Virus record (IMG/VR): IMGVR_UViG_3300035042_000037
Location: 1 to 58,598 of that record
Length of the DNA: 58,598 nt
Direction: 5' to 3' (one strand)
From: a virus
Lineage: Duplodnaviria > Caudoviricetes
This document shows positions 2,975 to 56,527 of the stretch, piece by piece. The first letter of the stretch is position 1. The number at the start of each line of letters is the position of its first letter. Made by a program: the position numbers and the translations under genes. The notes under the pieces are model-generated. The model did no database searches and had not been told where the DNA came from. It was given only the letters and a program-made list of their open reading frames with translations.

Positions 2975-5900
2975 ATGAATTTAGAACAGCATCCATATTA
3001 TGATGATCATGATTCGCAATATGAAAAAGATTACAAACAACTTTTGTTTAATCCTGGTAGAGCTGTGCAGGCAAGAGAGTTAACACAATCTCAAAGTTTG
3101 ATTTATGATCAATTAGATTCTAATTTTAGGACTATTTATAAAAATGGTACAATCGTAAATGGATGTGAATTATCTATCTATACTATAGATTCTATTACAT
3201 ATGCTACAGTTAAAGAGGGTAATTTTTACGCTAACGGAAAGGTATATCCAGTACACGAACAAACTATAACTATAAGAGGTGCTGGTGAAGAATTTATTGG
3301 GTTAAAAATACAAGAATCAATAGTAACTTACCAAGAAGACCCTTCTTTAACTGATCCAGCTCAAGGATATTATAACTATAACAATAGTGGCGCTGATAGA
3401 TTAAAACAAGTTATAGTTTTAGATGCTAATAAACCTGGAATTTTTCCTTTATGGGAAATTAACGATAAAGTAATTATCAAGAACCCTAATAGACCAGATT
3501 ATTCTGATTTATTAACAGTTTTAGCAAGAAGAACTTATGATGAATCAGGTAATTATCTCGTTCAAGGGATGAAATTAAACGTAAGAAATGATCCTAATGA
3601 TAGTAATAAACTTATAATTACTGTTAGTTCTGGTAAAGCATATGTAAAAGGTTATGAAATTAAATTTCCTTCTCTTAAAACTGTAAAAGTTTCAAAAGCA
3701 CTAGATACTAATGCTAGAAGAAATGAACCAAAAGTATTTAGTACTGGAACTTATGATTATTCTTTAAACGAAAAATATGTTAAAGATATTTCAGAAGTTA
3801 ATGGTGAAGTTGAAACTACTGTATATTTAACTAAAGGTGTTGCTGATAGTTCAGATGCTATTATAGAAAATTCCAATTCTAATAACAGATTCCCAGGAAG
3901 AGAATATACTTCTATAATTAGTATTACTTCTATTACTTCAGTAGACGGTGGAACAACTTATGTAGAAGATACAGATTTTACTTTAAATGCCGACGAAATT
4001 GATTGGTATTTAGCAGGTGCTGAACCAGATCCTGGTTCTACTTATAAAGTAACATTTAAATATAACAAAACATTTGACAGTACTGAATATTCTTTAACAT
4101 CAGGTACAGACAATTATTATAATTTAACTTTTGATTCTGATTTAAATGATGTTTCATATCCCGATAACGATGAATATCCAAAAGATGGTTCAACAGTTGA
4201 TGTAGATTATAATTATTACCTTGCTAGGGTTGATTTAATTTCTGTTAATAGTTTAGGTGAAATTGTTGTAAAAACAGGACCTTATACTGATTGGGAAGAT
4301 TCTGTTGTGCCTTTTGAATCACAAGAAGTTTTAAGATTAGGTTATATTAAATTTATGCCTAATTCAGGTGCGGGAGAAACATCTATAGTAAATTATGGTT
4401 TCAAAAGAACAACAATGCTTCAACTTTATTATATGTTAGAAAGATTAAGTCAGGTTGAAGAAAATCAAGCTCAAATTTCACTAGAAGATGAAGCCATTAG
4501 CGGAGAATTACCTACTGAATTAAAAGGTATATTAGTAGATTCGTTTAATTCATTTTTCAAATCTGATATAAACACTGATTTTTCAGCTGCTATAAATAAA
4601 ATTTTACAAACATTAGAAATGAATACTACTCATAATGTTTATAAATTCTCTTATGCTAATAACATATTAGATAACATTAAAGAATATGGTCCTAATGGCA
4701 AATATAATACTATTAAAGTAATTTCAGAAATTTCAGCTGCAAGAAATGTTTATAGAAGTGGTTCAGAAAGTTTAAATCCACATGGCTTTTTAGACGATTT
4801 AACTGGAAAAATAGAGTGTGAACCATCTTCTGATACTTGGATAGATGACGAATATATAGAAAAAGAAATTGTAAATAATGTAGCTGAATCTAAAACTGTT
4901 AACACACATAACACTTCTTTGAGAAATACTACAGCTACTGAAACAGAAGATAAAATTACAGAAGAAATTGTGACTTTTAAAGAAGAAAAAAGTATAGAAT
5001 ATGCTAGACAAATACCTATTGAAATAACAGGTCAAGAATGGTTATCTACTTGTAGACTGATAGCAAAAATAGATGATGAATTTGTGAGTATTAATTCACC
5101 TTCAGATCAAACTTGGGATTCTGGAAATGAAGGTACAGTTTGGGAAACTGTGAATAATACAGATTTTCCTAATCATTTACCAAACGATGGGACGAATTAT
5201 ACTTCTGCTATAGTACAATCTGACGGTACTTTTAAAGGGATCATAACTATTCCTGAAGGTATTTCTACAGGCGATATAGAAATAAAAATTATCAATTTAG
5301 ATACAGAAAATGGATTATATAGTTCATTTGTTTTTGAATCTACTGGTTTAAAGAAATTTTATGAAAAAGAAATTTATATTGATAGAGTAGAAACTACAGT
5401 AATATATAATTATACGCCTAGATATACACCATCATATTCTAGTTATAGCTCTCCTTCACCTAGTTATGATGTTATAGCTTATGATGGTTCTCCAACAACA
5501 GCAGAAGTTGTATCAGGAACAGTTGGCGGTATAAAAACTGATGCTGGTGGAGATAGTAACTCAGCTTTAACTAATGTACTTGCAAGTGATTATGGTACTT
5601 CAACATCTTCAGATGTTGTTGCTGCAATTTCTAATTTATATACAAATATAACACAAAGAGCACCTGATACTGGTGGATTAAATTATTGGGTCCAAGAGGC
5701 AGAATCTGGTAAAAGTATGGATGAAATAACTCAAGCTTTTACTGCTGCAGCAAAAGAAAATAATGAACCCGCTGTTACAGATGGTTCTACTAATTTTGCT
5801 CCACCTTCTGAAGACAATTCAAGATATGTTTCATCAAGTAGTACTTCTTCTGATAGATCTTCAAGTACAGGTAGTGATAGTTGTACTAATGATCCAGTTG

Positions 5901-7162
5901 CTCAAAGTTTTTTCTTTGATGAAGATAAAATATTTACTTCTATTAATGTTTATTTTAATTCAGTAGATACAGAAGAAGATGCTTTTATGCAAATAGGATA
6001 TGTTATTAATGGATATCCAGAAATGAAATCAATTTTTCATACTCAATATTTTTCTGCTGCTGATATATATTATGATTTAACAGGTGAAATGCCTACTAAT
6101 ATTAAATTTGATAAACCCATATATATTCCAGCTAATACATACTTCTTCGTTTCTTTTGGTTCCAAATCAAGAGATTGGAGAATTTACATAGCAGAAATGG
6201 GAAAATATGATTTAATAACTAATAATTATATAACTAAAAATCCTTATTTAGATGGTGTATTTTTCACGTCTAGTAACAATATTACTTGGTCAGCATTGCA
6301 AGAAACTGATTTAGCTTTTAATTTATTCGAAGGTAATTTTGGGGAATCTGGAACAATTCAAACAGAAACTATAAATGTTCCAGAAGGTTTTTCAATGTTT
6401 AAATATACTCCTAAAACACAAGTAATGGAAAAATCAACTATAGATTATTTTTATTCTTTAGATGAAGGAGAAAATTGGAAAACATTCAATCCAGATAATG
6501 TTATAGAATTAACATCAGTTTATAATACATTAAATATTAAAATGAAATTATTTGGTAATGGAAAATATTCCCCTATTGTAGATGTATCACAAAACAGTAT
6601 CGTATTTAGTATATATGATAATACTTCTGATTCAGTTTATATAACAAAAACTGTAAACAATACACCAGAATATAACGAAATAAAAGTAATTCTGGATGAA
6701 AATATGCCTCCAACTGGATCAAAAACATTGAAAGCCTCTGTTGATGATATATTATATTTCAAATTAGATGATACAGAAGAAGAATCTATTCCAGTTGGTT
6801 CAGGCTTTTATAGAAAAACTTATAGTACTAATTTAGATTCTTATTATAAATTTTCTGATATTACTATTACAGATACAATTTCTGAAGATGATACATTTAC
6901 AGGAAGTGGTACTGGAACGCCATCTGGAACAGTAGAAGCAGTTGGAGATAATGAAATAATTTTAAAATTAGATTCTGGAACATTTGAAGATACTGAAACA
7001 ATTACAACTTCTACAGGAGGTTCGTTCGTTGTTGATATTACTAACATGATTAATTTAACTAATAATACTACATTTAAAGGTAGAATTGATTTTAATTCTT
7101 CGAATCAAGCATTATCACCATTATTTAAGAAATTAAAATACATTATGAAGAAAGTTATTTAG
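2975..7162 (+). CDS. Large baseplate/virion structural protein (DUF4815/VrlC-like)
   Basis: PYYDD..LLFNPGRAVQARELTQ.Q, GADRLK, LARRTYDESGNY, GKAYVKGYEI and DPVAQSF motifs. Confidence 0.85.
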   Translation: MNLEQHPYYDDHDSQYEKDYKQLLFNPGRAVQARELTQSQSLIYDQLDSNFRTIYKNGTIVNGCELSIYTIDSITYATVKEGNFYANGKVYPVHEQTITIRGAGEEFIGLKIQESIVTYQEDPSLTDPAQGYYNYNNSGADRLKQVIVLDANKPGIFPLWEINDKVIIKNPNRPDYSDLLTVLARRTYDESGNYLVQGMKLNVRNDPNDSNKLIITVSSGKAYVKGYEIKFPSLKTVKVSKALDTNARRNEPKVFSTGTYDYSLNEKYVKDISEVNGEVETTVYLTKGVADSSDAIIENSNSNNRFPGREYTSIISITSITSVDGGTTYVEDTDFTLNADEIDWYLAGAEPDPGSTYKVTFKYNKTFDSTEYSLTSGTDNYYNLTFDSDLNDVSYPDNDEYPKDGSTVDVDYNYYLARVDLISVNSLGEIVVKTGPYTDWEDSVVPFESQEVLRLGYIKFMPNSGAGETSIVNYGFKRTTMLQLYYMLERLSQVEENQAQISLEDEAISGELPTELKGILVDSFNSFFKSDINTDFSAAINKILQTLEMNTTHNVYKFSYANNILDNIKEYGPNGKYNTIKVISEISAARNVYRSGSESLNPHGFLDDLTGKIECEPSSDTWIDDEYIEKEIVNNVAESKTVNTHNTSLRNTTATETEDKITEEIVTFKEEKSIEYARQIPIEITGQEWLSTCRLIAKIDDEFVSINSPSDQTWDSGNEGTVWETVNNTDFPNHLPNDGTNYTSAIVQSDGTFKGIITIPEGISTGDIEIKIINLDTENGLYSSFVFESTGLKKFYEKEIYIDRVETTVIYNYTPRYTPSYSSYSSPSPSYDVIAYDGSPTTAEVVSGTVGGIKTDAGGDSNSALTNVLASDYGTSTSSDVVAAISNLYTNITQRAPDTGGLNYWVQEAESGKSMDEITQAFTAAAKENNEPAVTDGSTNFAPPSEDNSRYVSSSSTSSDRSSSTGSDSCTNDPVAQSFFFDEDKIFTSINVYFNSVDTEEDAFMQIGYVINGYPEMKSIFHTQYFSAADIYYDLTGEMPTNIKFDKPIYIPANTYFFVSFGSKSRDWRIYIAEMGKYDLITNNYITKNPYLDGVFFTSSNNITWSALQETDLAFNLFEGNFGESGTIQTETINVPEGFSMFKYTPKTQVMEKSTIDYFYSLDEGENWKTFNPDNVIELTSVYNTLNIKMKLFGNGKYSPIVDVSQNSIVFSIYDNTSDSVYITKTVNNTPEYNEIKVILDENMPPTGSKTLKASVDDILYFKLDDTEEESIPVGSGFYRKTYSTNLDSYYKFSDITITDTISEDDTFTGSGTGTPSGTVEAVGDNEIILKLDSGTFEDTETITTSTGGSFVVDITNMINLTNNTTFKGRIDFNSSNQALSPLFKKLKYIMKKVI

Positions 7163-7939: not shown

Positions 7940-8451
7940 GTTTAGCAACTAGAATAGCACAAGAATTTAATGCAGTTAGAGGTGAGTTTATTCCTGATAC
8001 TGATTCTCCCACGGGTGATATCGTTGGTACTACAGACAATCAAACAATTTCTAATAAGATTTTTCAGGATTCAACCTTTGATGGTGGTGTTATTTCCGCA
8101 ACAGAGTACATTGAGACATATAACACCGTAACTTCAAATACAAATGCTACAAATATAGATTGTTCAACTGGTAATGTTTTTAGTCACACTCTTAGCGAAA
8201 ATACTACGTTTACATTCAGTAACCCACCTGCTTCCGGTGATTCTTATGGCATGACATTAACTATTGTCCAAGACTCTGGCGGTACAGGATACACAGTCAC
8301 ATGGCCCACATCAGTACGTTGGCCGGGAGCGTCAGCACCTAGCTTAACGAGTGATGCGGATGCTGTGGACGTGTTTGTTTTTTACACATCAGACGGCGGT
8401 ACAACCTGGGATGGATTTATCGGCGGTCAAGCGATGGGGGTTCCGGCATGA
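7936..8451 (+). CDS. Tail fibre-like protein
   Basis: Motifs IDCSTGNVFSHTL, TFTFSNPPASG, VTWPTSVRWPG..APSL, DVFVFYTSDGGTTW. Confidence 0.65.
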   Translation: MSLATRIAQEFNAVRGEFIPDTDSPTGDIVGTTDNQTISNKIFQDSTFDGGVISATEYIETYNTVTSNTNATNIDCSTGNVFSHTLSENTTFTFSNPPASGDSYGMTLTIVQDSGGTGYTVTWPTSVRWPGASAPSLTSDADAVDVFVFYTSDGGTTWDGFIGGQAMGVPA

Positions 8452-9479
8452 GTTTAATTAGCAAAAAAGTGAGTTTAGCTACGAGCGGGGCATTGTATGA
8501 TTATACTTTTGCCTGTGTAATATCCTATTCAACCGGACTGATTTATACTGTAGATATAACTGATCCAGCAAACATGGCATTGTTGGATTCAGTGGGTTCA
8601 ACAAACACAACGACAATCAGATCATTAGGCGTAGATAAAACTAACAAATATGCAGTTGTGGGCAGCATCGATAAAGACGCAATATCAACAATAAACATCT
8701 CCGACCCATCAAACTTGAACATTTTGGATACGTTGGCAAACACAACACTGTTCGGCGGCGTATATGGTTTTGGAATAGATGAGGAAAATCGATACATATA
8801 CCCCATAGACCAAAGCGCGAGCTATTTTACATCGGTAAATGCCAGCAATGCTTCATCATTATCAATCGACGATTTTTTGACAGTTGGCAGCATCCCGCAG
8901 GACTGTGTAGTAGATGAAGAAAATAATGTTGCATATGTCGCAACATCTAACGGAAACTCTATTGATGTTGTTGATTTAAGCAACAATTCCGTGTTATCAG
9001 TGTTAGATTCTTTTTCGTCTGCGTCGATGGATGTACCGTATGGCGTCGATTTAGATGTAGATAATAATATCTTATATGTTGCATGTTTTAACAATGATGC
9101 TATTTGCTCTGTAGATGTTAGTAATCCGTCTGCATTATCTTTGATAGGTGTGTATACAAACTCGAGCTTAAATGAGGCAAGGAAGGTAAAGATTGACACA
9201 GATAAAGACGTTGCATATGTGGTTTCAGACGCGGGATCATCATTGACAGCAATAGACATAAGCAGCCCAGCTTCTTTGTCTAAACTAAGCAGCTTGTCAA
9301 CTGGATTAAGCAGGCCATGGTTTGTAGATATTGACATTAAAAACGAGATTGTTTATGTCCTTGATTTTGGGTCTTCAAGCCTCATTTCCGTGGATGTATC
9401 GAATCCTTCCTCAATGTCTATATTAGACACCTTTGTAGGTTCTGGATGGGCAAGCATGTATGGTCTTGGATTAGCATAG
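8448..9479 (+). CDS. LVIVD-repeat beta-propeller protein, putative receptor-binding
   Basis: About 7 repeats of YV....L..VDxSNPS.LS.L; sits in a GC-richer cassette. Confidence 0.7.
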   Translation: MSLISKKVSLATSGALYDYTFACVISYSTGLIYTVDITDPANMALLDSVGSTNTTTIRSLGVDKTNKYAVVGSIDKDAISTINISDPSNLNILDTLANTTLFGGVYGFGIDEENRYIYPIDQSASYFTSVNASNASSLSIDDFLTVGSIPQDCVVDEENNVAYVATSNGNSIDVVDLSNNSVLSVLDSFSSASMDVPYGVDLDVDNNILYVACFNNDAICSVDVSNPSALSLIGVYTNSSLNEARKVKIDTDKDVAYVVSDAGSSLTAIDISSPASLSKLSSLSTGLSRPWFVDIDIKNEIVYVLDFGSSSLISVDVSNPSSMSILDTFVGSGWASMYGLGLA

Positions 9480-9502
9480 ATTGATAAAATAAAGGAGCGC
9501 AA

Positions 9503-10051
9503 ATGTACATAAAAACAACGGCAAATAACATGATTGATAAATACCCGTACTCGATACCTCAGTTACGCAAAGACAATCCCAGCACCAGCTTCCCCAAGCG
9601 CCCATCAGAAGCATTGCTTGCATCATACGAGGTTTATCCGGTAACGGTACAGCAAGTAACACCGGGAGCATATCAGACAGTGGAAAGCGCGGCAGAGCCT
9701 ACCTTGATTGATGGTGTGTGGACGCTTGAAAAATGGGCGGTTGATCTTCCGCCAGATGAGAAAAACGCACTATTACAAAAAGACTGCGAAAGGGCGGTGG
9801 AGGAGTATATACAAGCAGAGGTTGACGCATATAACAGTGCAAATAATACTCTTTTCCGCGATGTCCACTCGTGTGTTAATTATGCCTCAGTTGATGGCTA
9901 CACACACCAAACATTCTGCGCTAATGTGTGGGCATGGAGCGTGAATGTGTGGGAGGCAGCACGACAGATGCTTGCAGATGCACAGGCGGGAACCATAACC
10001 ATCACCAGCCCGCAGGATGTGATTGACGGGTTGCCAGTATTCAGCTCTTAA
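9503..10051 (+). CDS. Tail fibre assembly/chaperone-like protein
   Basis: YPYSI.QLRKDNP.TSFP N-terminus and ...VW....VID.LP.F C-terminus. Confidence 0.6.
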   Translation: MYIKTTANNMIDKYPYSIPQLRKDNPSTSFPKRPSEALLASYEVYPVTVQQVTPGAYQTVESAAEPTLIDGVWTLEKWAVDLPPDEKNALLQKDCERAVEEYIQAEVDAYNSANNTLFRDVHSCVNYASVDGYTHQTFCANVWAWSVNVWEAARQMLADAQAGTITITSPQDVIDGLPVFSS

Positions 10052-40206: not shown

Positions 40207-41042
40207 AAAATACTCCTTTAAACTTCATACTGATTAATTATTTTTTGAATTTGTTTCAACTCTAATTCAAAATCAAACACTAATTCTGCTTCAGGAACTT
40301 TTACCCATTTCTTATTCATATTATAATCAAATGCTAATTGAACAGTGTTGTTCCCTTGTTGTTTAAGTATAGGTTTAAGAAAAAACATTTCTATCTCTTT
40401 CTTTTAATTCTTTTAATCTAAACATTTAGTTATTGAAACTACATGACAATTACTAAATTTATACTTATTTTCAATAAAATCTATAGCTCTTTGTTTGATA
40501 TTCTCATTACCTTTAATCTTTATAATTGTATTTTTCCATCTATCATATTCATCTAAATAGAAACACAAAACGTTATATTCATTCATTATTTCCCCTTTAA
40601 AATAAAAAGATTTGAGTTATTTGATATATTAAACTAACAAATACTGAACTTATACCTAAAAATATAATATCACATATACTTTGAAATTTCTTTTCTGACA
40701 TCATTAATTCCTTTTAATTTTTAGTTCAAATAAGAATGGGTGAGAAATAATCCCACCCATTATTTAATTTGCTTAACTTTTATTTTTATTCAGGAATTTC
40801 TTCTCGAACCATTTCTTATAATCTTGTTCATATGCTTTAACCATATCATTTACATTTTTAGCTCTAGTAACTCCAACAGGCTCTTTCATTTGTTATTCCT
40901 TTCTTAATAATAAAGATATTCCATCATTAGATAAACACTGATTCCCATAAAAATATAGAAACTACACTCAAACAACGAATTTAATACTTTTTTCATCTTT
41001 ATCTCCTTTGATTTAATATAATACAAATATATCACATATAAT

Positions 41043-41450
41043 CTAAGATGTAAACATGTATTTTTTATATTTTCGATAATGTTCAGTATTTCCAGTTTTA
41101 ATACAACAAGAGTAAAATTTAACCTTTTCAAGATCGGCCTTTCCTGCTTTATCTTGAAATCTTGAAAGATATTTTACTACACATCCTTTACAAAAATCTA
41201 GTTCAAATTCTAAAATAAAATCTATAGGTTCCCATTTGTATTTAGTGTAATGTTTAGGATTAGCTTCATTAGTAACTTTATCATTAATATCTTTTGCATT
41301 AAGTTTATCTATTTTATTATATAATGAATTTAAATCTGTCCATCCCATTAAGGAATCGATCATTATTTCCATTATATCATTACTTAATTCATTAATAATA
41401 CAATATTTTTTGATATCATGAATTTTTAGAATTTGGTTTGAATTAGTCAT
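41043..41450 (-). CDS. DUF3310 domain protein
   Basis: NP.HY....EPIDFI....LDFC.G.VVKY.SR...K.GK.DLEK..FY motif. Confidence 0.8.
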   Translation of the reverse strand: MTNSNQILKIHDIKKYCIINELSNDIMEIMIDSLMGWTDLNSLYNKIDKLNAKDINDKVTNEANPKHYTKYKWEPIDFILEFELDFCKGCVVKYLSRFQDKAGKADLEKVKFYSCCIKTGNTEHYRKYKKYMFTS

Positions 41451-41715
41451 CGTTTTCCTCTGGAATTGGTGTTGATTCGTCTCCGATTAAATATTCAAAA
41501 ATTTGATCTTTTTGAAATTCGAGATCAACTGTTTTACTTTTATCTTTAGAGATAGACTTATAAAGCTTAAACGAATCTTTAATAGCTTTAGGTTCAAATT
41601 TATCATTTTTTTCACAGAACAATTCAATAGCATCTTTAATCTCCTGACGAAGTTCTTTAATTTCATTTTCACGCGATTGCAGTTCATCAAATAATCCAAG
41701 AATTTCTTTTTTCAT
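41443..41715 (-). CDS. dsDNA-binding protein (T4 DsbA/GapR-like)
   Basis: Helical E.EIKELRQEIKD.....F.PKAI...KLY pattern, 90 aa. Confidence 0.55.
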   Translation of the reverse strand: MKKEILGLFDELQSRENEIKELRQEIKDAIELFCEKNDKFEPKAIKDSFKLYKSISKDKSKTVDLEFQKDQIFEYLIGDESTPIPEENDD

Positions 41716-42431
41716 ATGTCTAGCTCCTCAATCCTTAAAAGTTGGTCCACAGTATTAAAACCATAGACAAGTTGTGTCATAAAAGAATAATCCACTAATT
41801 TAACTTTGTTGTTTGCTAATTTTACAATATCCAAAAATCTCATTTCAGACTCAGGAAAGTCACCATAATAATTTTTATAATAATGTCTACTTCTAGATAA
41901 TTTTTCAAGCTCTTTAATAATAAGACTTCGTTTTCCATAGAATGTAGAAATATCCTGCAGACCTTCTTTATTAGTCTTATCCCCATATTTAGAGTATTTT
42001 ACATCATTTTCAAAAAGTTGTACATATGGATTTGTTCTCATTTGCACTGGAATAATAATTTTATCGGTTTGTTCTACTCTCATAGTACTAGCATAAACAA
42101 TTTTATCCAGCACAATACAATCTCCCCATTGAACAATAACATTATTTGTCTCAGGTATTTTGTTCAAAGCATCAAGAACAGCTTTACCACAACCATCTCC
42201 TGATTTGATAAAAATAACTTCACTAATACCATATTTTATTTTAAGGTCGCACTTACTAATAGTTATTGTTTCATTAAGTACTAAATAGATATTATTAACG
42301 TATGGTTTAGCTTTTTTAATATTCCACCCTAATACAGATGAATCCTTGAATGGGTGTAAAACTTTTAAATATGGACTGTCAAATCTTTTTTGACTTCCTG
42401 CAGCGATGATTACCAAATCATGTTTTTGCAT
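41712..42431 (-). CDS. Nucleotidyltransferase (GT-A, GlmU/MobA/CofC superfamily)
   Basis: VIIAAGSQKRF....KVL, G.G.AV..AL, WGD and GFNT motifs. Confidence 0.85.
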   Translation of the reverse strand: MQKHDLVIIAAGSQKRFDSPYLKVLHPFKDSSVLGWNIKKAKPYVNNIYLVLNETITISKCDLKIKYGISEVIFIKSGDGCGKAVLDALNKIPETNNVIVQWGDCIVLDKIVYASTMRVEQTDKIIIPVQMRTNPYVQLFENDVKYSKYGDKTNKEGLQDISTFYGKRSLIIKELEKLSRSRHYYKNYYGDFPESEMRFLDIVKLANNKVKLVDYSFMTQLVYGFNTVDQLLRIEELDI

Positions 42432-44085
42432 TATAAAGAATCTCCATTATTTCTTTGGTTTCGAGAATGTTATAAACGTTGAATCTGTATTTACCCATCA
42501 GAGAAATTTTTACATCATTTCCTTCAAAACAAGAATCTCCAATAAAGATAAAATCATCATTTACTAGACTTTTAGCAAAGACCTCTTTATCGGTTTGCTT
42601 TCTCATTATATCAATAGTCGTCAAACCTGCAGTGTGCGCTTTATAATCTAGCTTATTATTATCAAAATAATCATTAAGTTGTTTAACTAAAGTGTTTCTA
42701 TTTTTAATAACGGGCTTAATAGAGAAACAGGTTTTATTTCTTATCTCAATTTCAGCACTAGATGGAATAAAATGTTTGATTTTCTCAGATAGAAAGTTCT
42801 CAATTTTATATCTAAAGCCATCATTATCACCCATGATCTTATGAGTCAAATAATTATAAACACCTCCAGATGTCATAAAGTATTCTAAAAAGTTAATATT
42901 AAAACGTTTATCAATCTTTTTAAGAATACACTCAGGAGAATTGCCTGTTATGATTGATACTTTATATTTATTAGTTAGTTTATCTAAAAGCTCAATATTC
43001 TTTATACTGATTTCTGTTTCATTTGGATTTCTTGAAAACAAAGTATCATCGAAATCAAAAAGAATTCGTTTAGGCGGTACTTTCTTAATATACTCTTTTA
43101 GAATTTCTCTGCCAAGAAGCATTGCATTGTGCTTCCCTTTATTATTTCCAAAATTACCAACTACTCTATTATAACCTTTTAAAGTTTCAGGATCATTTAA
43201 AAATCGATCTCCATCTTTATTTAGAAAGTAATTTATTTTAAATATTGGTAGATAGTCTGATAGAATATTAATTAAATCCAGAGAGTTAACTCCTAACATA
43301 TCTTTATCTTGTTCATTATTGATAATCATAAACATTGGGATGTCAAGCTCTTCTAATTTATTACCAATTTCTTTATGCCAATAAGTAGGAATAAGTGAAG
43401 CCCACTGAGTTCCTGAACTAAATATTACTAGATCAGATTTTTCTAAAACATCTAAAACATCTTTATTCAATTTTGGAACATCTGTAAATTTAATCTTTTT
43501 AATCTTATCTTTAGACTTACTATAATTTACAATAGAAGCTTCATCATGTAAAACTTTTCCCAACTCTGTTTCAGCTTGTAAAATAACATTTGAATAAGAA
43601 GATAAGACAATATTATCAGGAATTTTCAACATATCCTTAAAGTAATTAATTGTATATTCATAACCAAACATAGAGAACATTGCGGCATATACAATGTTTG
43701 CTAAATTAAAATCTCTAAGATCATATTCTATTTCAGATTTTTCTAACTTATCAAAAAATAATCTGAAGTATGGTTTAAATTCCTGCATATTAATGTCATT
43801 TAAAATATCTTCAATTTGTCCATAATTTCTTATATCAATTCTATCTTCAAAAAACCTTACTAGGTTCATATCACAACTATCGTGTAAGTTTTTGTACTGA
43901 GTCCACTGATTTTTTCTGATATCAGAAGGGCCAAGAACATCAAATAATTTACGACAAACGCCCGTACTTTTACCATCATCATATGCATTAATAATATTGG
44001 TGATTCTTGCTTTTGGAAAAAAAGAAATAAGCCCCTGTTGTAGAGCTATAGATCCTGTTCCTCCAGAAAAAATAGAAATTCTCAT
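42418..44085 (-). CDS. CofD/YvcK (UPF0052) domain fused to a HAD-IIB phosphatase/phosphomutase
   Basis: N-terminal SGGTG, YDDGKSTG..R, GPSDIRKN, NLAN, GTQWASLIP. C-terminal FDFDDTL, IITG, AGLTTIDI...DK, FIGD...GND. Confidence 0.88.
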   Translation of the reverse strand: MRISIFSGGTGSIALQQGLISFFPKARITNIINAYDDGKSTGVCRKLFDVLGPSDIRKNQWTQYKNLHDSCDMNLVRFFEDRIDIRNYGQIEDILNDINMQEFKPYFRLFFDKLEKSEIEYDLRDFNLANIVYAAMFSMFGYEYTINYFKDMLKIPDNIVLSSYSNVILQAETELGKVLHDEASIVNYSKSKDKIKKIKFTDVPKLNKDVLDVLEKSDLVIFSSGTQWASLIPTYWHKEIGNKLEELDIPMFMIINNEQDKDMLGVNSLDLINILSDYLPIFKINYFLNKDGDRFLNDPETLKGYNRVVGNFGNNKGKHNAMLLGREILKEYIKKVPPKRILFDFDDTLFSRNPNETEISIKNIELLDKLTNKYKVSIITGNSPECILKKIDKRFNINFLEYFMTSGGVYNYLTHKIMGDNDGFRYKIENFLSEKIKHFIPSSAEIEIRNKTCFSIKPVIKNRNTLVKQLNDYFDNNKLDYKAHTAGLTTIDIMRKQTDKEVFAKSLVNDDFIFIGDSCFEGNDVKISLMGKYRFNVYNILETKEIMEILYNAKT

Positions 44086-45194
44086 AGTAAATCCTTAAAT
44101 CGGTTAGAATACTCGTTGAAAGATTCTATCATAACATCTTTTTTCTGCATTGTTAGAATTTTTTCTCTTAGACCTGATTTATTTTTGAGCAAATAAATTC
44201 TTTTTTCTAGATCTTTTCTATTAGAAATATAGTTAAATTTCTGTAAATTCTCATTAGAGAATACTTTGAAATTTTTATCATAAGATGAATCAATAAAGAC
44301 AATGTTGTTGCACATAATAGATTCATAAGCCCTTTGTGCCATGTTATCTAATTGCTTATAAATCTTATCGCCTATGATAACTGTTGCTAAACCTTTATTC
44401 ATCTTTTTATTAAAGTCTTGGTACTTGACAGAGGAACCAAATTTTGGCTCTGATAGTTTATTTGTATTCTTTTTAAATTGAGATGGTTTAATTTTACCAA
44501 ACATTTCAATACTAATATTATCATCAATACCGAAGAAAAATTTAATCATATCCTCTTCTCTCTTTCCACCTCTAAAGGTTCCGCCATATAAAATATCCCA
44601 TTCAGGATTTTCAGATTTAGGAATTTCTTCTAACGTATAAAGTGGAAATTTTTCGAAAGGGAAATGCACTATGTTTTCTTTTTTTATTGTAATTTTTGTT
44701 TTAGAGATGATTTTATTATAAACCATTTTTAGATCGCGTGCCTGGCAAATATATTTAATATCATCTCTAGTAATTTCAAGATCTTTTTTAGACCAGTTTG
44801 ATGACCATTCTTTTTTAGAAACTGATGGCCAGACTTGTTTAAGAGATAAATTAGGATCACACATTAAATAATAAATGCCGCCTTCAAAATTATTAATAAT
44901 CTTATAATTAAGAAGTTGTTCATGGTCTTCGACCCCACCAAAGAAATTTACATTACCATTAATAACAAATAATTTGTCAAATGAAGAATTTACTAGCTCA
45001 TATTCTTCTGCAATTTGATGTGGAACAGCACCATCGATTAGTTTATCTTTATCTAATATTTTAGTATAATAATGTACCTCAAAGACATTAGATAATATTG
45101 ATATGATTGATAATGCTTCTCCTGAACCACCTGATGTACCACCCGAAGCAATCCTTGCCCCTAATTTAATTACTGCTACATTTTCCATATTCAA
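44082..45194 (-). CDS. bgt: DNA beta-glucosyltransferase homologue (T4 Bgt family)
   Basis: Collinear with T4 Bgt motifs recalled from memory: NGNVNFFGG, IYYL.CD..L, W..V....W, FP.E, DILYGGTFR.G.RE..M..F.F, IIGDK.Y, R.YE, FID..YD. Confidence 0.88.
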   Translation of the reverse strand: MNMENVAVIKLGARIASGGTSGGSGEALSIISILSNVFEVHYYTKILDKDKLIDGAVPHQIAEEYELVNSSFDKLFVINGNVNFFGGVEDHEQLLNYKIINNFEGGIYYLMCDPNLSLKQVWPSVSKKEWSSNWSKKDLEITRDDIKYICQARDLKMVYNKIISKTKITIKKENIVHFPFEKFPLYTLEEIPKSENPEWDILYGGTFRGGKREEDMIKFFFGIDDNISIEMFGKIKPSQFKKNTNKLSEPKFGSSVKYQDFNKKMNKGLATVIIGDKIYKQLDNMAQRAYESIMCNNIVFIDSSYDKNFKVFSNENLQKFNYISNRKDLEKRIYLLKNKSGLREKILTMQKKDVMIESFNEYSNRFKDLL

Positions 45195-45204
45195 ACAATC
45201 TCCT

Positions 45205-45771
45205 TTAACTATAGCAAAATATATTTTTAGCCCAATCAGGTTTATTGTAGAACCATTCTACTTTTATCTTTCTTTCTCTCGATAACCAATCTCTATATTT
45301 AGATAATACATAACTTTTGTATGATTGTAAAATATTTTTACTATGAAATTCTTCTGGCATTGCTAAAGGAGGTTCTATAAATGTTTTATTATCAATATTA
45401 TTAGGAATTTGATCTAGAAAAGATATTAGTGACGAGGTTTTATGCTGTTTACCAGTACATTCTTCATAAATTAAACATAAATAAACAAATGTATTATATA
45501 ACCATATATAATGTTCAGAAGATTCTCTGACCCATACAGCAGAAAGATGATTTACATGAGTAGCTACATAGAGGATATTTTCCACGTCTCCGTTTAATTC
45601 ATAAATAGTTTTCTTTCTTTTATTTTGAATAATAACTTTTTTAGTTCCATCTAAAACTCTGTGCGCAGTAGATAACATTTGCGCGTACTCAATAATCATT
45701 TTATTTTGATGTACATTACAATGTTCTGTAGCACATATGAATGAGTCAGGATTAGTATAAAAAATATTCAT
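45205..45771 (-). CDS. Pyrimidine-dimer DNA glycosylase family protein
   Basis: MNIF......CA..H...H..KMIIEYAQMLSTAH, TH.NH..A.W.RES and P.AMP motifs. Confidence 0.8.
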   Translation of the reverse strand: MNIFYTNPDSFICATEHCNVHQNKMIIEYAQMLSTAHRVLDGTKKVIIQNKRKKTIYELNGDVENILYVATHVNHLSAVWVRESSEHYIWLYNTFVYLCLIYEECTGKQHKTSSLISFLDQIPNNIDNKTFIEPPLAMPEEFHSKNILQSYKSYVLSKYRDWLSRERKIKVEWFYNKPDWAKNIFCYS

Positions 45772-50285: not shown

Positions 50286-51660
50286 TTGACGCTCCCCGGG
50301 GCAAGCCCACGGGGATTCGAGCGAAGTTTGATTACACATTTGCAACCCTTATTCGTTCAGGGTACGCCAGAATACCCTTTATCTGCTCAACGGTATTAAA
50401 CTGTATTGCAGTTACTTTTGATTTACGAGCTATGTTTATAGCTCCATTTACATCTGCATTAAGAAGAAAACCGTCTTTGCTTTGAAACAATCCTCTTTTA
50501 ATTCTTTTGCCAACATATTCATCGTGATGTTTTACTTCTTCATTATCAATTGCTGAGCATTTAGATGTATGAGATTCTTGAGTTTCAAGATAGTTTAATC
50601 CGTATTCTTGACACTTGGATTCAAGCATTGACATTAAATATCCAAAAGGAACTTGCACAAAGTTTTGATTGTTCCTTTTTCCAATATTTATTTTTTGTTT
50701 CCATCCTTTATTGCGCCCAACAATAATTGTTCCAATATCGTTTTCAATACAGTAATCAAGAATATGTTTTGCCGTTTTTCTCATTACATCCTTGATACGG
50801 TTTTCTCTTTTTCTCTTAAACAAGAATTGTCGTTTGGTATAGCCCTTGATGTTTTGTTTATCTTTAATGCCTTGCAATCTTGCATTCTGCTTGTTCCAGT
50901 AATAGTTAATTGATTTAAGTTTTTTCCCGTCCATTATGAACGCCCTATTATTTGAAACATCGTAGCAAGTAGCAAGGTTTGATAAACCAACATCAATGCT
51001 TAACACATTATCCTTACTAAGGTTTAATTCCTGTTCTTTGATTTCATAAACCACCTCCATTTTAAAGAATGTTGCTTTTTGTTGTGGGATTATTCTTATT
51101 TCAACAACATCTTCTTTATTAATTTGAGTAGGAAAATCTAAAACAATATTCTTTAATCCAGTCTCCTTTTTAAGTTGTCTTGATATACCAATATGTATTT
51201 TATTGCCTTTGATTTGAAAACCATTTTTAGGAATTATCAATTGAAAATATCCATCTTTAGGAAGATATTTAGGAATAGAAACTCTGCTTTGATATTTTCT
51301 TTGTCTTCTTGCTTTTAATAAACCAAAGAATGATTTAAAGCTCCTATCAACTATTTTAAGTGTTTGTTGACCTATCGCAGAGGGCAGTATTTGGTAGTTC
51401 TCATTTGTCTTACAGTGATGATAATTCTGTGGATATGATAGATATGTTTTAGTCTCAAAGAAATTTTGGCGAACACAATACAACCCAAAATTATATAGAC
51501 GGGCAGAATGCCAACATATCTTTCGTAAAAGATTGTATTGGTCTTTATTTAATCGTCTTATTTGATTCGATTGTGTTTTATACATTATTTATGCCTCTAT
51601 TTATTAATATCATATCTATAATATACTAACATATTCATAAACTGTCAAGTAGTTTTTTTT
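50286..51660 (-). mobile_element. Solo tnpB element (IS200/IS605 family); left end uncertain
   Basis: Right-end hairpin at 50293-50315 followed by GCGTCAA (end at 50286); own TTGACA-17-TATATT promoter (51620-48); no tnpA. Confidence 0.75.
50332..51585 (-). CDS. tnpB: RNA-guided endonuclease TnpB
   Basis: LYN..LY, PKYL.K, RuvC-I SIDVGLSNL, IIVG.NKGWKQ, ESHTSKCS and RuvC-III NADVNGAINI motifs. Confidence 0.93.
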   Translation of the reverse strand: MYKTQSNQIRRLNKDQYNLLRKICWHSARLYNFGLYCVRQNFFETKTYLSYPQNYHHCKTNENYQILPSAIGQQTLKIVDRSFKSFFGLLKARRQRKYQSRVSIPKYLPKDGYFQLIIPKNGFQIKGNKIHIGISRQLKKETGLKNIVLDFPTQINKEDVVEIRIIPQQKATFFKMEVVYEIKEQELNLSKDNVLSIDVGLSNLATCYDVSNNRAFIMDGKKLKSINYYWNKQNARLQGIKDKQNIKGYTKRQFLFKRKRENRIKDVMRKTAKHILDYCIENDIGTIIVGRNKGWKQKINIGKRNNQNFVQVPFGYLMSMLESKCQEYGLNYLETQESHTSKCSAIDNEEVKHHDEYVGKRIKRGLFQSKDGFLLNADVNGAINIARKSKVTAIQFNTVEQIKGILAYPERIRVANV

Positions 51661-55966: not shown

Positions 55967-56527
55967 TTATAAAATTCTATTAAAGTGATCTATTTTAAGT
56001 TGCTTTTTAGATAACCCTTCAGTACTAGGAGCAATGATTTCAAAATCCTCAGTTAATATATTTTCACAATAATACTCATCTATTTCCTGTAACACATGTT
56101 CATTTATATATTTTCTCATGTTAGGATTTCGTTTGAGTATCTTAGTTAATTCGATTTTTTCATGTTTATATATTCTATCTGGTGTAGTATAACAGATGAT
56201 ATTACAATCATATAATACATGAGTACATGCGTACCACAATTTTTGTTTGTCGCAGGATAACGCATCATCCACATAAACAGTATCTATTTTTTGGCCACGT
56301 AAACCATCACTACTATTAGGAGTAAAAATTTTAGAAATGATAGAAGAATGTGTTATATGGTTTAATTGTTTTAGAATTTTTTCGGTTATGCTTTTCTTCA
56401 TGTCTATATTAGGAACCACAATAATAGAATTAGTATTCTGATTTTCCCAATCCGTTATGAATTTTTTTATTATTTTTGTTGTTTTACCCGAACGTCTTGA
56501 TTGAGTATAAATCTGTTTTGTTTTCAT
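55967..56527 (-). CDS. P-loop ATPase (terminase/helicase-like N-domain)
   Basis: RRSGKTT Walker A and LRG...D.VYVDD Walker B. Confidence 0.7.
   Translation of the reverse strand: MKTKQIYTQSRRSGKTTKIIKKFITDWENQNTNSIIVVPNIDMKKSITEKILKQLNHITHSSIISKIFTPNSSDGLRGQKIDTVYVDDALSCDKQKLWYACTHVLYDCNIICYTTPDRIYKHEKIELTKILKRNPNMRKYINEHVLQEIDEYYCENILTEDFEIIAPSTEGLSKKQLKIDHFNRIL

Follow-up and report, generated by a model that had tools for sequence, protein, structure and literature searches.

Why would a T4-like phage carry, directly behind a homologue of T4 beta-glucosyltransferase (Bgt), two further overlapping genes whose products resemble enzymes of sugar-nucleotide synthesis? The question is raised by the virus record IMGVR_UViG_3300035042_000037, which in its whole length of 58,598 bp is the stretch of DNA analysed here (the window), and which was estimated by CheckV to represent ~26% of the genome. 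Its T4-like backbone comprises genes for gp32 (2.4e-45), RegA (6.5e-34), the gp44/gp62 clamp loader, gp45, and a gp23-family capsid protein. The three genes in question (the trio) are all located on the minus strand and encode, successively, a Bgt-family protein, a fusion of a YvcK/GlmR-like domain of the CofD superfamily with a haloacid dehalogenase (HAD) domain of the IIB type, and a GlmU-type nucleotidyltransferase, with overlaps of 4 nt (Bgt/fusion) and 14 nt (fusion/nucleotidyltransferase). An earlier note on this DNA had named such an overlapping arrangement and these families, the third as a GT-A nucleotidyltransferase, and the profile and structure comparisons described below bear it out.

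With a probability of roughly 0.6, the trio can be considered a module for glycosylation of 5-hydroxymethylcytosine (hmC) in the DNA of a T4-like phage, equipped with a private supply of a uridine diphosphate (UDP) sugar. What is new in it, compared with known systems of phage DNA glycosylation that encode their own donor pathway, is the YvcK/CofD-like domain. Glycosylation of phage DNA determines which of the restriction, type IV, and CRISPR defences can see the genome, and the identity of the sugar matters there. The module is conserved in one cultured phage and in dozens of large contigs from T4-like and jumbo phages, the genes beyond Bgt being annotated as hypothetical.

Domains of the three proteins

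The gene for the Bgt homologue, a protein of 370 aa, occupies positions 44082-45194 of the minus strand and begins with TTG, with a likely alternative ATG start two codons further in. The protein passes the threshold of the Pfam family PF09198 (T4-Gluco-transf, GT63; 3.3e-20), scoring 72.9 bits where 27 suffice, and matches phrog_7922, beta-glucosyltransferase, at 5.6e-56; the alignment of a profile of 29 family members with T4 BGT (1bgt) covers residues 1-334 of 351, with E 2.2e-64. Residues E26, D113, R208, R212, R288, and E291 of the window protein align with T4 E22, D100, R191, R195, R269, and E272; five of the six are invariant in the 29 sequences, and E291 (T4 E272) is nearly so, being kept in at least 90%. 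We take Asp100 and Glu22 of T4 BGT to be catalytic, and Arg191, Arg195, Arg269, and Glu272 to be involved in UDP binding. Identity of the window protein amounts to ~29% with T4 Bgt and to 42% with the Bgt of Ralstonia phage RsoM2USA. These similarities suggest that the Bgt-family enzyme acts as a sugar transferase onto hmC in DNA.

The second gene, at 42418-44085 (minus strand), encodes a fusion protein of 555 aa, which in the search of a 24-sequence profile against the PDB is divided at residue ~335/336. Its N-terminal part (residues 1-335, positions 43081-44085) is recognised in Pfam by the superfamily model PF01933 (CofD, 1e-23) alone, the only match of the whole protein. Among PDB profiles the best matches of this half are the YvcK/UPF0052 proteins 2ppv (6.6e-28) and 2hzb (3e-27), with CofD 3c3d following at 3.4e-4. 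The AlphaFold model of the fusion is of high predicted quality (pLDDT 90.9, pTM 0.83), and in Foldseek comparisons its N-terminal half reaches template-modelling (TM) scores of 0.80-0.82 with YvcK, 0.70 with CofD, and 0.65 with FbiA, the E values for CofD 3c3d and FbiA ranging from 2e-9 to 6e-8. Judged by sequence, the N-terminal domain is YvcK/GlmR-like and not CofD proper: its closest relatives are not CofD or FbiA, its partner is not CofC, and it belongs with CofD at the level of the superfamily model PF01933 only. With the CofC/CofD (FbiD/FbiA) system it shares the superfamily fold and an adjacent nucleotidyltransferase gene, but the match to CofD is weak (3.4e-4) and the nucleotidyltransferase does not resemble CofC; F420 genes were not seen in the annotated neighbourhood, although no search was aimed at them.

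The best match in both sequence and fold is thus the GlmR/YvcK protein of Firmicutes, a UDP-sugar-binding accessory uridyltransferase. The motif YDDGKSTG of the window protein, containing D36 and D37, aligns with DDGGSSG of the YvcK structures 2hzb and 2o2z; D36 is invariant in the fusion family, and D37 is replaced by N or S in some relatives. Uridyltransferase activity of GlmR was originally reported in PMC10128056, and both D38 and D39 of the Bacillus subtilis protein are needed for it according to parts of PMC13046274. YvcK binds UDP-glucose as well as UDP-N-acetylglucosamine (UDP-GlcNAc), as stated in the abstract of PMC5482804. The hidden Markov model alignments to YvcK stop short of the region which holds R301, the UDP-GlcNAc-binding arginine of B. 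subtilis. The domain also differs from GlmR/YvcK in its fusion to HAD, in the absence of yvcJ/whiA context, and in its score with the YvcK model TIGR01826, which reaches 75.5 bits where 196 would be required. The majority of invariant columns in the fusion protein fall in this CofD-like half.

The C-terminal part (residues 336-555, positions 42418-43080) is a HAD-IIB domain of the phosphomannomutase (PMM)/alpha-phosphoglucomutase (APGM) type. In the 24-sequence profile it matches APGM 4bnd at 5e-13 and PMM2 at 3e-11, and a profile of the HAD domain alone gives PMM 7myv at 7.8e-17, APGM 4bnd at 3.9e-13, and PMM2 at 6e-12, with phosphatases being weaker (Cof-type 1rlm, 6.7e-5; trehalose-6-phosphate phosphatase, 8.9e-4). 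APGM and PMMs also rank first in Foldseek. The HAD motifs I-IV (DxDxT, S/T, K, GDxxxxD) are intact, D344, D346, T348, K500, G516, and G522 being invariant and D517 and D524 nearly so. As far as such comparisons go, the domain is closer to phosphohexomutases than to Cof-type or trehalose-6-phosphate phosphatases. Its best PDB relatives, PMM1/2 and the APGM of Lactococcus, differ from it in not being fused and show ~17-20% identity; with the model TIGR01484 it scores 28.4 against a cut-off of 41.8.

The third gene, at 41712-42431 (minus strand), encodes a putative sugar-1-phosphate nucleotidyltransferase of 239 aa, GlmU-type with a MobA-like fold. It matches PF12804 (NTP_transf_3) at 1e-6, and the best match of a 26-sequence profile is the uridyltransferase domain of GlmU (5vmk, 9e-15, positions 3-191 of 241), followed by IspD, TarI, CobY, and MobA; no CofC entry is present among the best 60 of the 79 PDB matches. 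GlmU models are likewise on top in NCBIfam, all of them far under their cut-offs. The N-terminal signature G-x-G-x-R...K is present, and G12, R16, K23, D104, and N226 are invariant. The C-terminal acetyltransferase domain of bifunctional GlmU is absent, the 239 aa corresponding to the nucleotidyltransferase domain alone.

Conservation of the trio and of the two-gene cassette

A scan of viral contigs with the single fusion protein gave no match, and an alignment-based scan of IMG/VR was used instead, yielding 53 loci which encode the fusion protein at 27-36% identity. By profile searches the HAD domain is present in all 53, the nucleotidyltransferase in 52, and Bgt in 44; single-sequence queries gave the same number for Bgt and 49 of 53 for the nucleotidyltransferase. 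One of the nine loci lacking Bgt, L041, ends at the fusion gene. The order Bgt, fusion, nucleotidyltransferase is kept in all Bgt-bearing loci except L027, where Bgt lies 6 kb downstream, and L011, which is without the nucleotidyltransferase. Chance adjacency of the three genes was rejected on these counts in divergent viral contigs. A different partition of the same domains is seen in L030, where HAD domain and nucleotidyltransferase form one protein (4954-6288) and the YvcK-like domain is separate; in the same locus a P-loop kinase is fused to a dCMP-hydroxymethylase-like domain (1483-2799).

When 13 near-duplicate loci were merged by hand, 41 groups remained, the window included. Bgt is found in 33 of them, a P-loop kinase with weak thymidylate-kinase similarity (dNMP-kinase-like) in 24, and a gene of the thymidylate synthase (TS) family in 23, followed by a guanylate-kinase-like protein (14), a helicase (13), MazG (9), and dUTPase (9). 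Two further conserved neighbour families, c655 and c325, gave no identity in the searches. The earlier note had proposed a DNA hypermodification operon; that the trio forms a conserved unit linked to such modification is well supported by the linkage of the nucleotidyltransferase (52/53) and Bgt (44/53) and by the gp42-type hydroxymethylase, dNMP-kinase-like, and MazG/dUTPase genes of the relatives.

In a few loci Bgt and the fusion gene are separated by an additional gene. In four of them it is a class I methyltransferase dependent on S-adenosylmethionine (L002:1498-2322, L012:9192-10004, L021:8970-9992, and L049:8781-9587), that of L012 matching Methyltransf_31 at 2.8e-10; it may be a sugar O-methyltransferase, as the family suggests, and hints at further sugar tailoring in some lineages. 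In two others it is a protein of the uracil-DNA-glycosylase superfamily (L024:8996-9535 and L046:9404-9883), with a PF03167 match (8.6e-6) for L024 only.

The TS-family neighbours are of the T4 gp42 type, i.e., dCMP hydroxymethylases, and one is located within 10 kb in 30 of the 53 loci. The records of 40 of these loci were searched with PF00303, the remaining 13 being duplicates or very short. A TS-family gene was found in 28 of the 40 records, and all 28 are among the 32 which bear Bgt, with none in the eight lacking it; the four Bgt-bearing records without such a gene are 10-24% complete. Searches for Tet_JBP (PF12851) in the 40 records and for AGT (PF11440) in the window gave no match, and neither did their controls. 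A profile of these neighbours matches T4 dCMP hydroxymethylase (1b49) over its full length at E 1.6e-96, and thymidylate synthases at ~1e-27 or weaker. Asp is present both at the position of T4 D179 and at that of Escherichia coli D169 in all 21 hydroxymethylase sequences. The Asp at T4 D179 sets cytosine specificity. The 5-hydroxy-dCMP synthases have Asn at D169, according to passages of PMC13326640, and since the Asp is kept here, the enzymes of the relatives can be regarded as hydroxymethylases and the base as hmC. 5-Hydroxycytosine was considered as the base of the relatives and rejected on the same diagnostic residue (21/21). In G001 and G003, the genomes with the closest Bgt relatives of the window protein, a dUTPase-kinase-hydroxymethylase cluster is located beside a LigA gene, ~50 kb from the trio.

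The Bgt sequences themselves separate according to the presence of the other two genes. A second scan, with the Bgt profile, added another 70 loci, many of them located on the same contigs; in 44 of them the cassette (fusion and nucleotidyltransferase genes) is present within 6 kb, and in the other 26 Bgt stands without it, mostly directly after the hydroxymethylase gene in T4 fashion. For a quick tree, 53 of 56 Bgt sequences were used after removal of open reading frames (ORFs) of up to 300 aa, identical sequences, and copies above 95% identity. A single group (SH-aLRT 93) unites 33 of the 34 rows linked to the cassette and one row without it; the Bgts of T4 and VPE25 fall outside, that of T4 at a great distance. 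The cassette label changes three times on this tree, against a mean of 15.7 for shuffled labels, and none of 500 shuffles was as good, a test which is inflated by near-copies. In Enterococcus phage VPE25 (L208, LT615366) a gene annotated as 'Nucleotide sugar synthetase-like protein' (4499-5461) lies two genes downstream of b-gt, after the thymidylate-synthase and dUTPase genes, and is possibly another donor gene near a Bgt homologue.

Yet the cassette is not confined to phages with Bgt. In L007, L008, L013, L017, and L053, which lack Bgt, and in the contig L071 of a metagenome-assembled genome, the pair is flanked by a TET-associated glycosyltransferase (TAGT, PF20691). All eight members of this flanking family match PF20691 (best E 2e-37), on which the assignment was based, the AlphaFold model of one such neighbour being poor (pLDDT 62.7) and left unused; L007 and L008 contain two copies. 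No TS-family gene was found in those TAGT-locus records that were searched. A conserved family of ~150 aa without a Pfam match is located just upstream in the TAGT loci. A third setting is seen in the near-complete genomes G010 (locus L014) and G038 (locus L050), where no match to Bgt, TAGT, or the TS family was found; there the pair comes after genes for a short-chain dehydrogenase and for two conserved ~300-aa proteins without a family match, and is followed by genes for DNA polymerase III beta, RecU-like, and RecA-like proteins.

A scan of GTDB gave 271 relatives, and the analysis was continued with the best 79 loci. In the 38 bacterial loci with the full fusion (L054-L091) the nucleotidyltransferase gene is always adjacent, with neither Bgt nor hydroxymethylase in any of them. 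A gene for a family 2 glycosyltransferase (GT2) is located near the pair in 17 of the 38, in a setting of polysaccharide genes which also include GT8, a Wzx-type flippase, epimerases, and cytidylyltransferases. In L056, L057, and L062 an EpsU/PgaC-like GT2 gene lies directly upstream of the pair, which in L062 adjoins phosphoglycerate kinase, i.e., a chromosomal setting; an NCBIfam scan of the EpsU/PgaC-like GT2 partners gave no indication of the sugar. Among the longer CofD-like proteins of other phyla, ten were inspected, with fusions to GT2 (five), NTP_transf_3 (three), or HAD (one), and one protein having no other recognised domain.

The two-gene cassette therefore travels with three unrelated glycosyltransferase families, T4 BGT, TAGT, and GT2, two of which are DNA-base glycosyltransferases. 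As the pair stands beside TAGT in Bgt-less phages and beside GT2 in bacteria, it looks like a portable sugar-donor cassette, and because the same cassette serves all three families, solving its chemistry would annotate many phage and bacterial loci.

Among cultured phages a blastn search with the region gave one weak match, and only two of the 50,697 phage records on deposit encode the fusion protein, namely those of a metagenomic phage of 462 kb without annotation and of Ralstonia phage RsoM2USA. The latter possesses every member of the set, each deposited as a hypothetical protein: Bgt-like ORF2, fusion ORF1, nucleotidyltransferase ORF486, hydroxymethylase-like ORF10, kinase ORF6, and MazG ORF477. 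In passages of its published description (PMC8504454) ORF2 is named as a homologue of beta-glucosyltransferase and ORF10 as thymidylate synthase, and no DNA-modification analysis was found in those passages.

A related architecture appears in the ESM Atlas, in a cluster of 60 proteins of ~773 aa labelled Nucleocytoviricota, with CofD in 98% and NTP_transf_3 in 13% of the members; that giant viruses carry a related CofD/NTP_transf_3 fusion may be taken as a lead.

Possible chemistry and comparison with described pathways

If the trio is an hmC-glycosylation module, its parts could work as follows. The T4-like phage would substitute hmC for cytosine. The PMM/APGM-type HAD domain would convert a hexose phosphate to hexose-1-phosphate, by mutase or by bisphosphate phosphatase action, and the GlmU-type nucleotidyltransferase would join hexose-1-phosphate with a nucleoside triphosphate to give a nucleoside diphosphate (NDP) sugar, i.e., a UDP-sugar. 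The YvcK/GlmR-like domain would work on the same pool of phospho-sugar or UDP-sugar, perhaps as a second uridylyltransferase or in the place taken by the kinase in the heptose and arabinose pathways, and the Bgt-family enzyme would finally transfer the sugar from UDP-sugar to hmC in DNA. The sugar could be glucose, GlcNAc, or another hexose: the analogy with GlmM/GlmU/GlmR hints at an N-acetylhexosamine (HexNAc), and the similarity to APGM together with the UDP-glucose binding by YvcK reported in part of PMC5482804 would equally allow plain glucose.

T4 itself shares with the trio the Bgt family, the gp42-type hydroxymethylase of the relatives, and the backbone of the window, but in T4 gp42 and b-gt are adjacent and no donor genes exist, whereas here two donor-cassette genes follow Bgt and gp42 is not present in the window. 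Closest in architecture is the heptose cluster of the metavirome 'contig 53', which likewise combines a HAD fusion, a nucleotidyltransferase, and a T4-bGT-like glycosyltransferase. According to the available part of bioRxiv 10.1101/2023.12.21.572611, the HAD/APH bifunctional enzyme, the cytidylyltransferase, and the glycosyltransferase of this cluster are all required for heptosyl-5hmC. As presented there, the HAD partner is an APH kinase and 5hmC is derived from 5-methylcytosine by TET, whereas here the partner is YvcK/CofD-like and the relatives encode a gp42-type hydroxymethylase.

The second described pathway is that of RB69, DLP3, and HY126 (Afh-type), in which a HAD phosphatase and a nucleotidyltransferase-kinase make UDP-arabinose for arabinosyl-5-hydroxycytosine, according to sections of PMC13326640. 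The general course, from a phage sugar phosphate through HAD and a nucleotidyltransferase to a UDP-sugar for DNA glycosyltransferases, with a TS homologue making the modified dCMP, is alike in both systems. As far as those sections describe it, the arabinose pathway differs in making 5-hydroxycytosine by D169N TS homologues and in using an isomerase and a kinase, with no Bgt homologue and no mention of CofD/YvcK; the relatives of the trio keep the D169-equivalent Asp (21/21).

Since these arabinose and heptose pathways have been described, in the parts of PMC13326640 and bioRxiv 10.1101/2023.12.21.572611 cited above, the general idea of a phage donor pathway is not new. In open-access papers and bioRxiv no published link was found between CofD/YvcK/UPF0052 and phage DNA modification, nor between a CofD-like protein and a glycosyltransferase, and the names 'CofD' and 'YvcK' are absent from the main text of both of these papers. 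The earlier note was aware of no such pathway containing a CofD/YvcK domain, in agreement with this survey. If the proposed reading is true, the trio would join the arabinose and heptose systems as a third donor pathway encoded by phages, and would give the first genomic handle on the large YvcK/CofD-like family outside F420 synthesis and GlmR.

Several points weigh against the proposed reading. No gene of the TS, dUTPase, thymidylate-kinase, or MazG family is present in the window, a 58.6-kb fragment of ~26% of the genome, and therefore the hmC premise rests here on the relatives and on the incompleteness of the record. Three near-complete phage genomes without a TS-family gene (G010, G016, and G038) contain the pair too, which is therefore not specific to hmC. 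The sequence of the HAD domain does not separate a mutase from a bisphosphate phosphatase, and no result obtained here singles out one sugar. As the scores with TIGR01826 and TIGR01484 are below the cut-offs, the domains of the fusion should be considered relatives, not orthologues, of the characterised enzymes. Moreover, were the YvcK-like domain a uridylyltransferase, the separate GlmU-like enzyme would look redundant.

The alternative which survives best is in fact nested in the proposed reading, namely that the DNA carries plain beta-glucosyl-hmC and that the cassette secures UDP-glucose, from glucose 6-phosphate through glucose 1-phosphate, where it is scarce in the host. This version is possible, though on the doubtful side. 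It is favoured by the presence of the glucose-specific APGM 4bnd among the two best HAD relatives, by retention of the T4 Bgt residues which we take to be UDP-binding, and by the bacterial EpsU/PgaC-type GT2 partners, which need a simple UDP-sugar only; the binding of UDP-glucose as well as UDP-GlcNAc by YvcK (abstract of PMC5482804) is in line with it. It fits less well that the cassette-linked Bgts form a group of their own with ~29% identity to T4 Bgt, which is compatible with a changed donor, that the methyltransferase genes of four loci hint at sugar tailoring, and that the nucleotidyltransferase is nearest to GlmU, an enzyme of HexNAc-1-phosphate. This bears on the first model of the earlier note, in which the HAD mutase and the nucleotidyltransferase make a private NDP-sugar and the DNA carries a sugar other than glucose: the first part is in agreement with the PMM/APGM and GlmU-type homologies, but the second does not follow from them, private UDP-glucose fitting equally.

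The other model of the earlier note assumed a pair resembling CofC and CofD. In a version adapted to the domains found here, the nucleotidyltransferase would make NDP-X and the CofD-like domain would put phospho-X on glucosyl-hmC or hmC with release of the nucleoside monophosphate, X being most simply the sugar-1-phosphate from the HAD mutase and the product a phosphodiester-linked DNA decoration. The CofD fold of the domain (Foldseek E 2e-9 to 6e-8), the concentration of invariant columns in the CofD-like half, and the fusions to NTP_transf_3 (3/10) and GT2 (5/10), which echo the CofC-CofD pairing, speak for such a scheme, and it would give every domain a non-redundant role. However, we know of no phosphodiester-linked DNA sugar of this kind in T4-like phages, YvcK/GlmR is much nearer to the domain than CofD (6.6e-28 versus 3.4e-4; TM 0.80 versus 0.70), and the 60 best PDB matches of the nucleotidyltransferase, which resembles GlmU, include no CofC. 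The model is weakened by these two affinities, to GlmU and to YvcK; moreover, GlmR is reported to be a uridyltransferase, in parts of PMC13046274, and its catalytic Asp-Asp is kept here. On balance this scheme is unlikely. A still more specific form of it, in which the YvcK/CofD-like domain is a new phospho-sugar transferase adding sugar-1-phosphate to the sugar placed by Bgt, so that the DNA would carry a phosphodiester-linked disaccharide, appears improbable as well; if true, phospho-sugar transfer would explain the widespread modules of glycosyltransferase, CofD-like protein, and nucleotidyltransferase in bacterial exopolysaccharide loci, in TAGT phages, and possibly in giant viruses.

A target other than DNA, i.e., virion proteins or host envelope polymers glycosylated as the bacterial cassettes probably do, is suggested by the 38 of 38 bacterial loci without Bgt and hydroxymethylase, by their GT2 neighbours (17/38, as well as L056, L057, and L062), and by the smaller numbers with a flippase or an epimerase, but it is highly implausible for the phages, whose partner glycosyltransferases T4 BGT and TAGT have DNA bases as known or predicted substrates, whose neighbouring genes encode hydroxymethylase, dNMP-kinase-like, dNTP pyrophosphatase, and replication proteins, and whose Bgt tracks the TS-family gene (28/32 versus 0/8).

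Surroundings of the trio in the window

The string of overlapping genes continues beyond the trio with two more ORFs, so that five minus-strand ORFs overlap in all. The first of them, at 41443-41715, overlaps the nucleotidyltransferase gene by 4 nt and encodes 90 aa with no match in Pfam or PHROG and no homologue in the 53 related viral loci. The earlier note had called a gene following the trio DsbA-like, a label which does not apply to this one, as its translation contains a single cysteine and no CxxC motif. The second, at 41043-41450, overlaps the former by 8 nt and encodes a DUF3310 protein of 135 aa (PF11753, 1.5e-11), as had been noted earlier. It also matches PHROG 'nucleotide kinase' families (best 1.6e-15), aligned only over the DUF3310 part of these longer profiles, and has no homologue among the 53 loci. 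On the other side, 10 nt from the Bgt start, a gene of 188 aa (45205-45771, minus strand) belongs to phrog_624, 'DNA binding protein' (1.5e-44). It is possibly the first gene of the transcription unit of the trio, and is not conserved beside the trio in the 53 viral loci.

Consensus scans placed a promoter-like site at 45841-45812 (minus strand), one of 60 such sites against 45.7 ± 8.4 expected, i.e., not above chance, and a terminator-like hairpin with an 11-bp stem at 40735-40761 (minus strand), 3' of the gene string, one of three sites against 1.0 expected and known from the consensus scan only.

The window is AT-rich, mostly with 25-32% GC, and a search for tRNA genes in it gave none. Two GC islands of 42-44%, compared with ~27% for the genome, are located at 1-2000 and 8001-10000, and the latter contains an ORF (8448-9479) with weak matches to NHL/YVTN beta-propeller repeats. 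A gene of the TnpB/IS605 OrfB type is present at 50332-51585 (minus strand; PF01385, 1.6e-23), with a Cas12f-like TNB domain in addition, and a few kb from it a short ORF at 55967-56527 (minus strand) gives only a weak match to the N-terminal part of the T4-type terminase.

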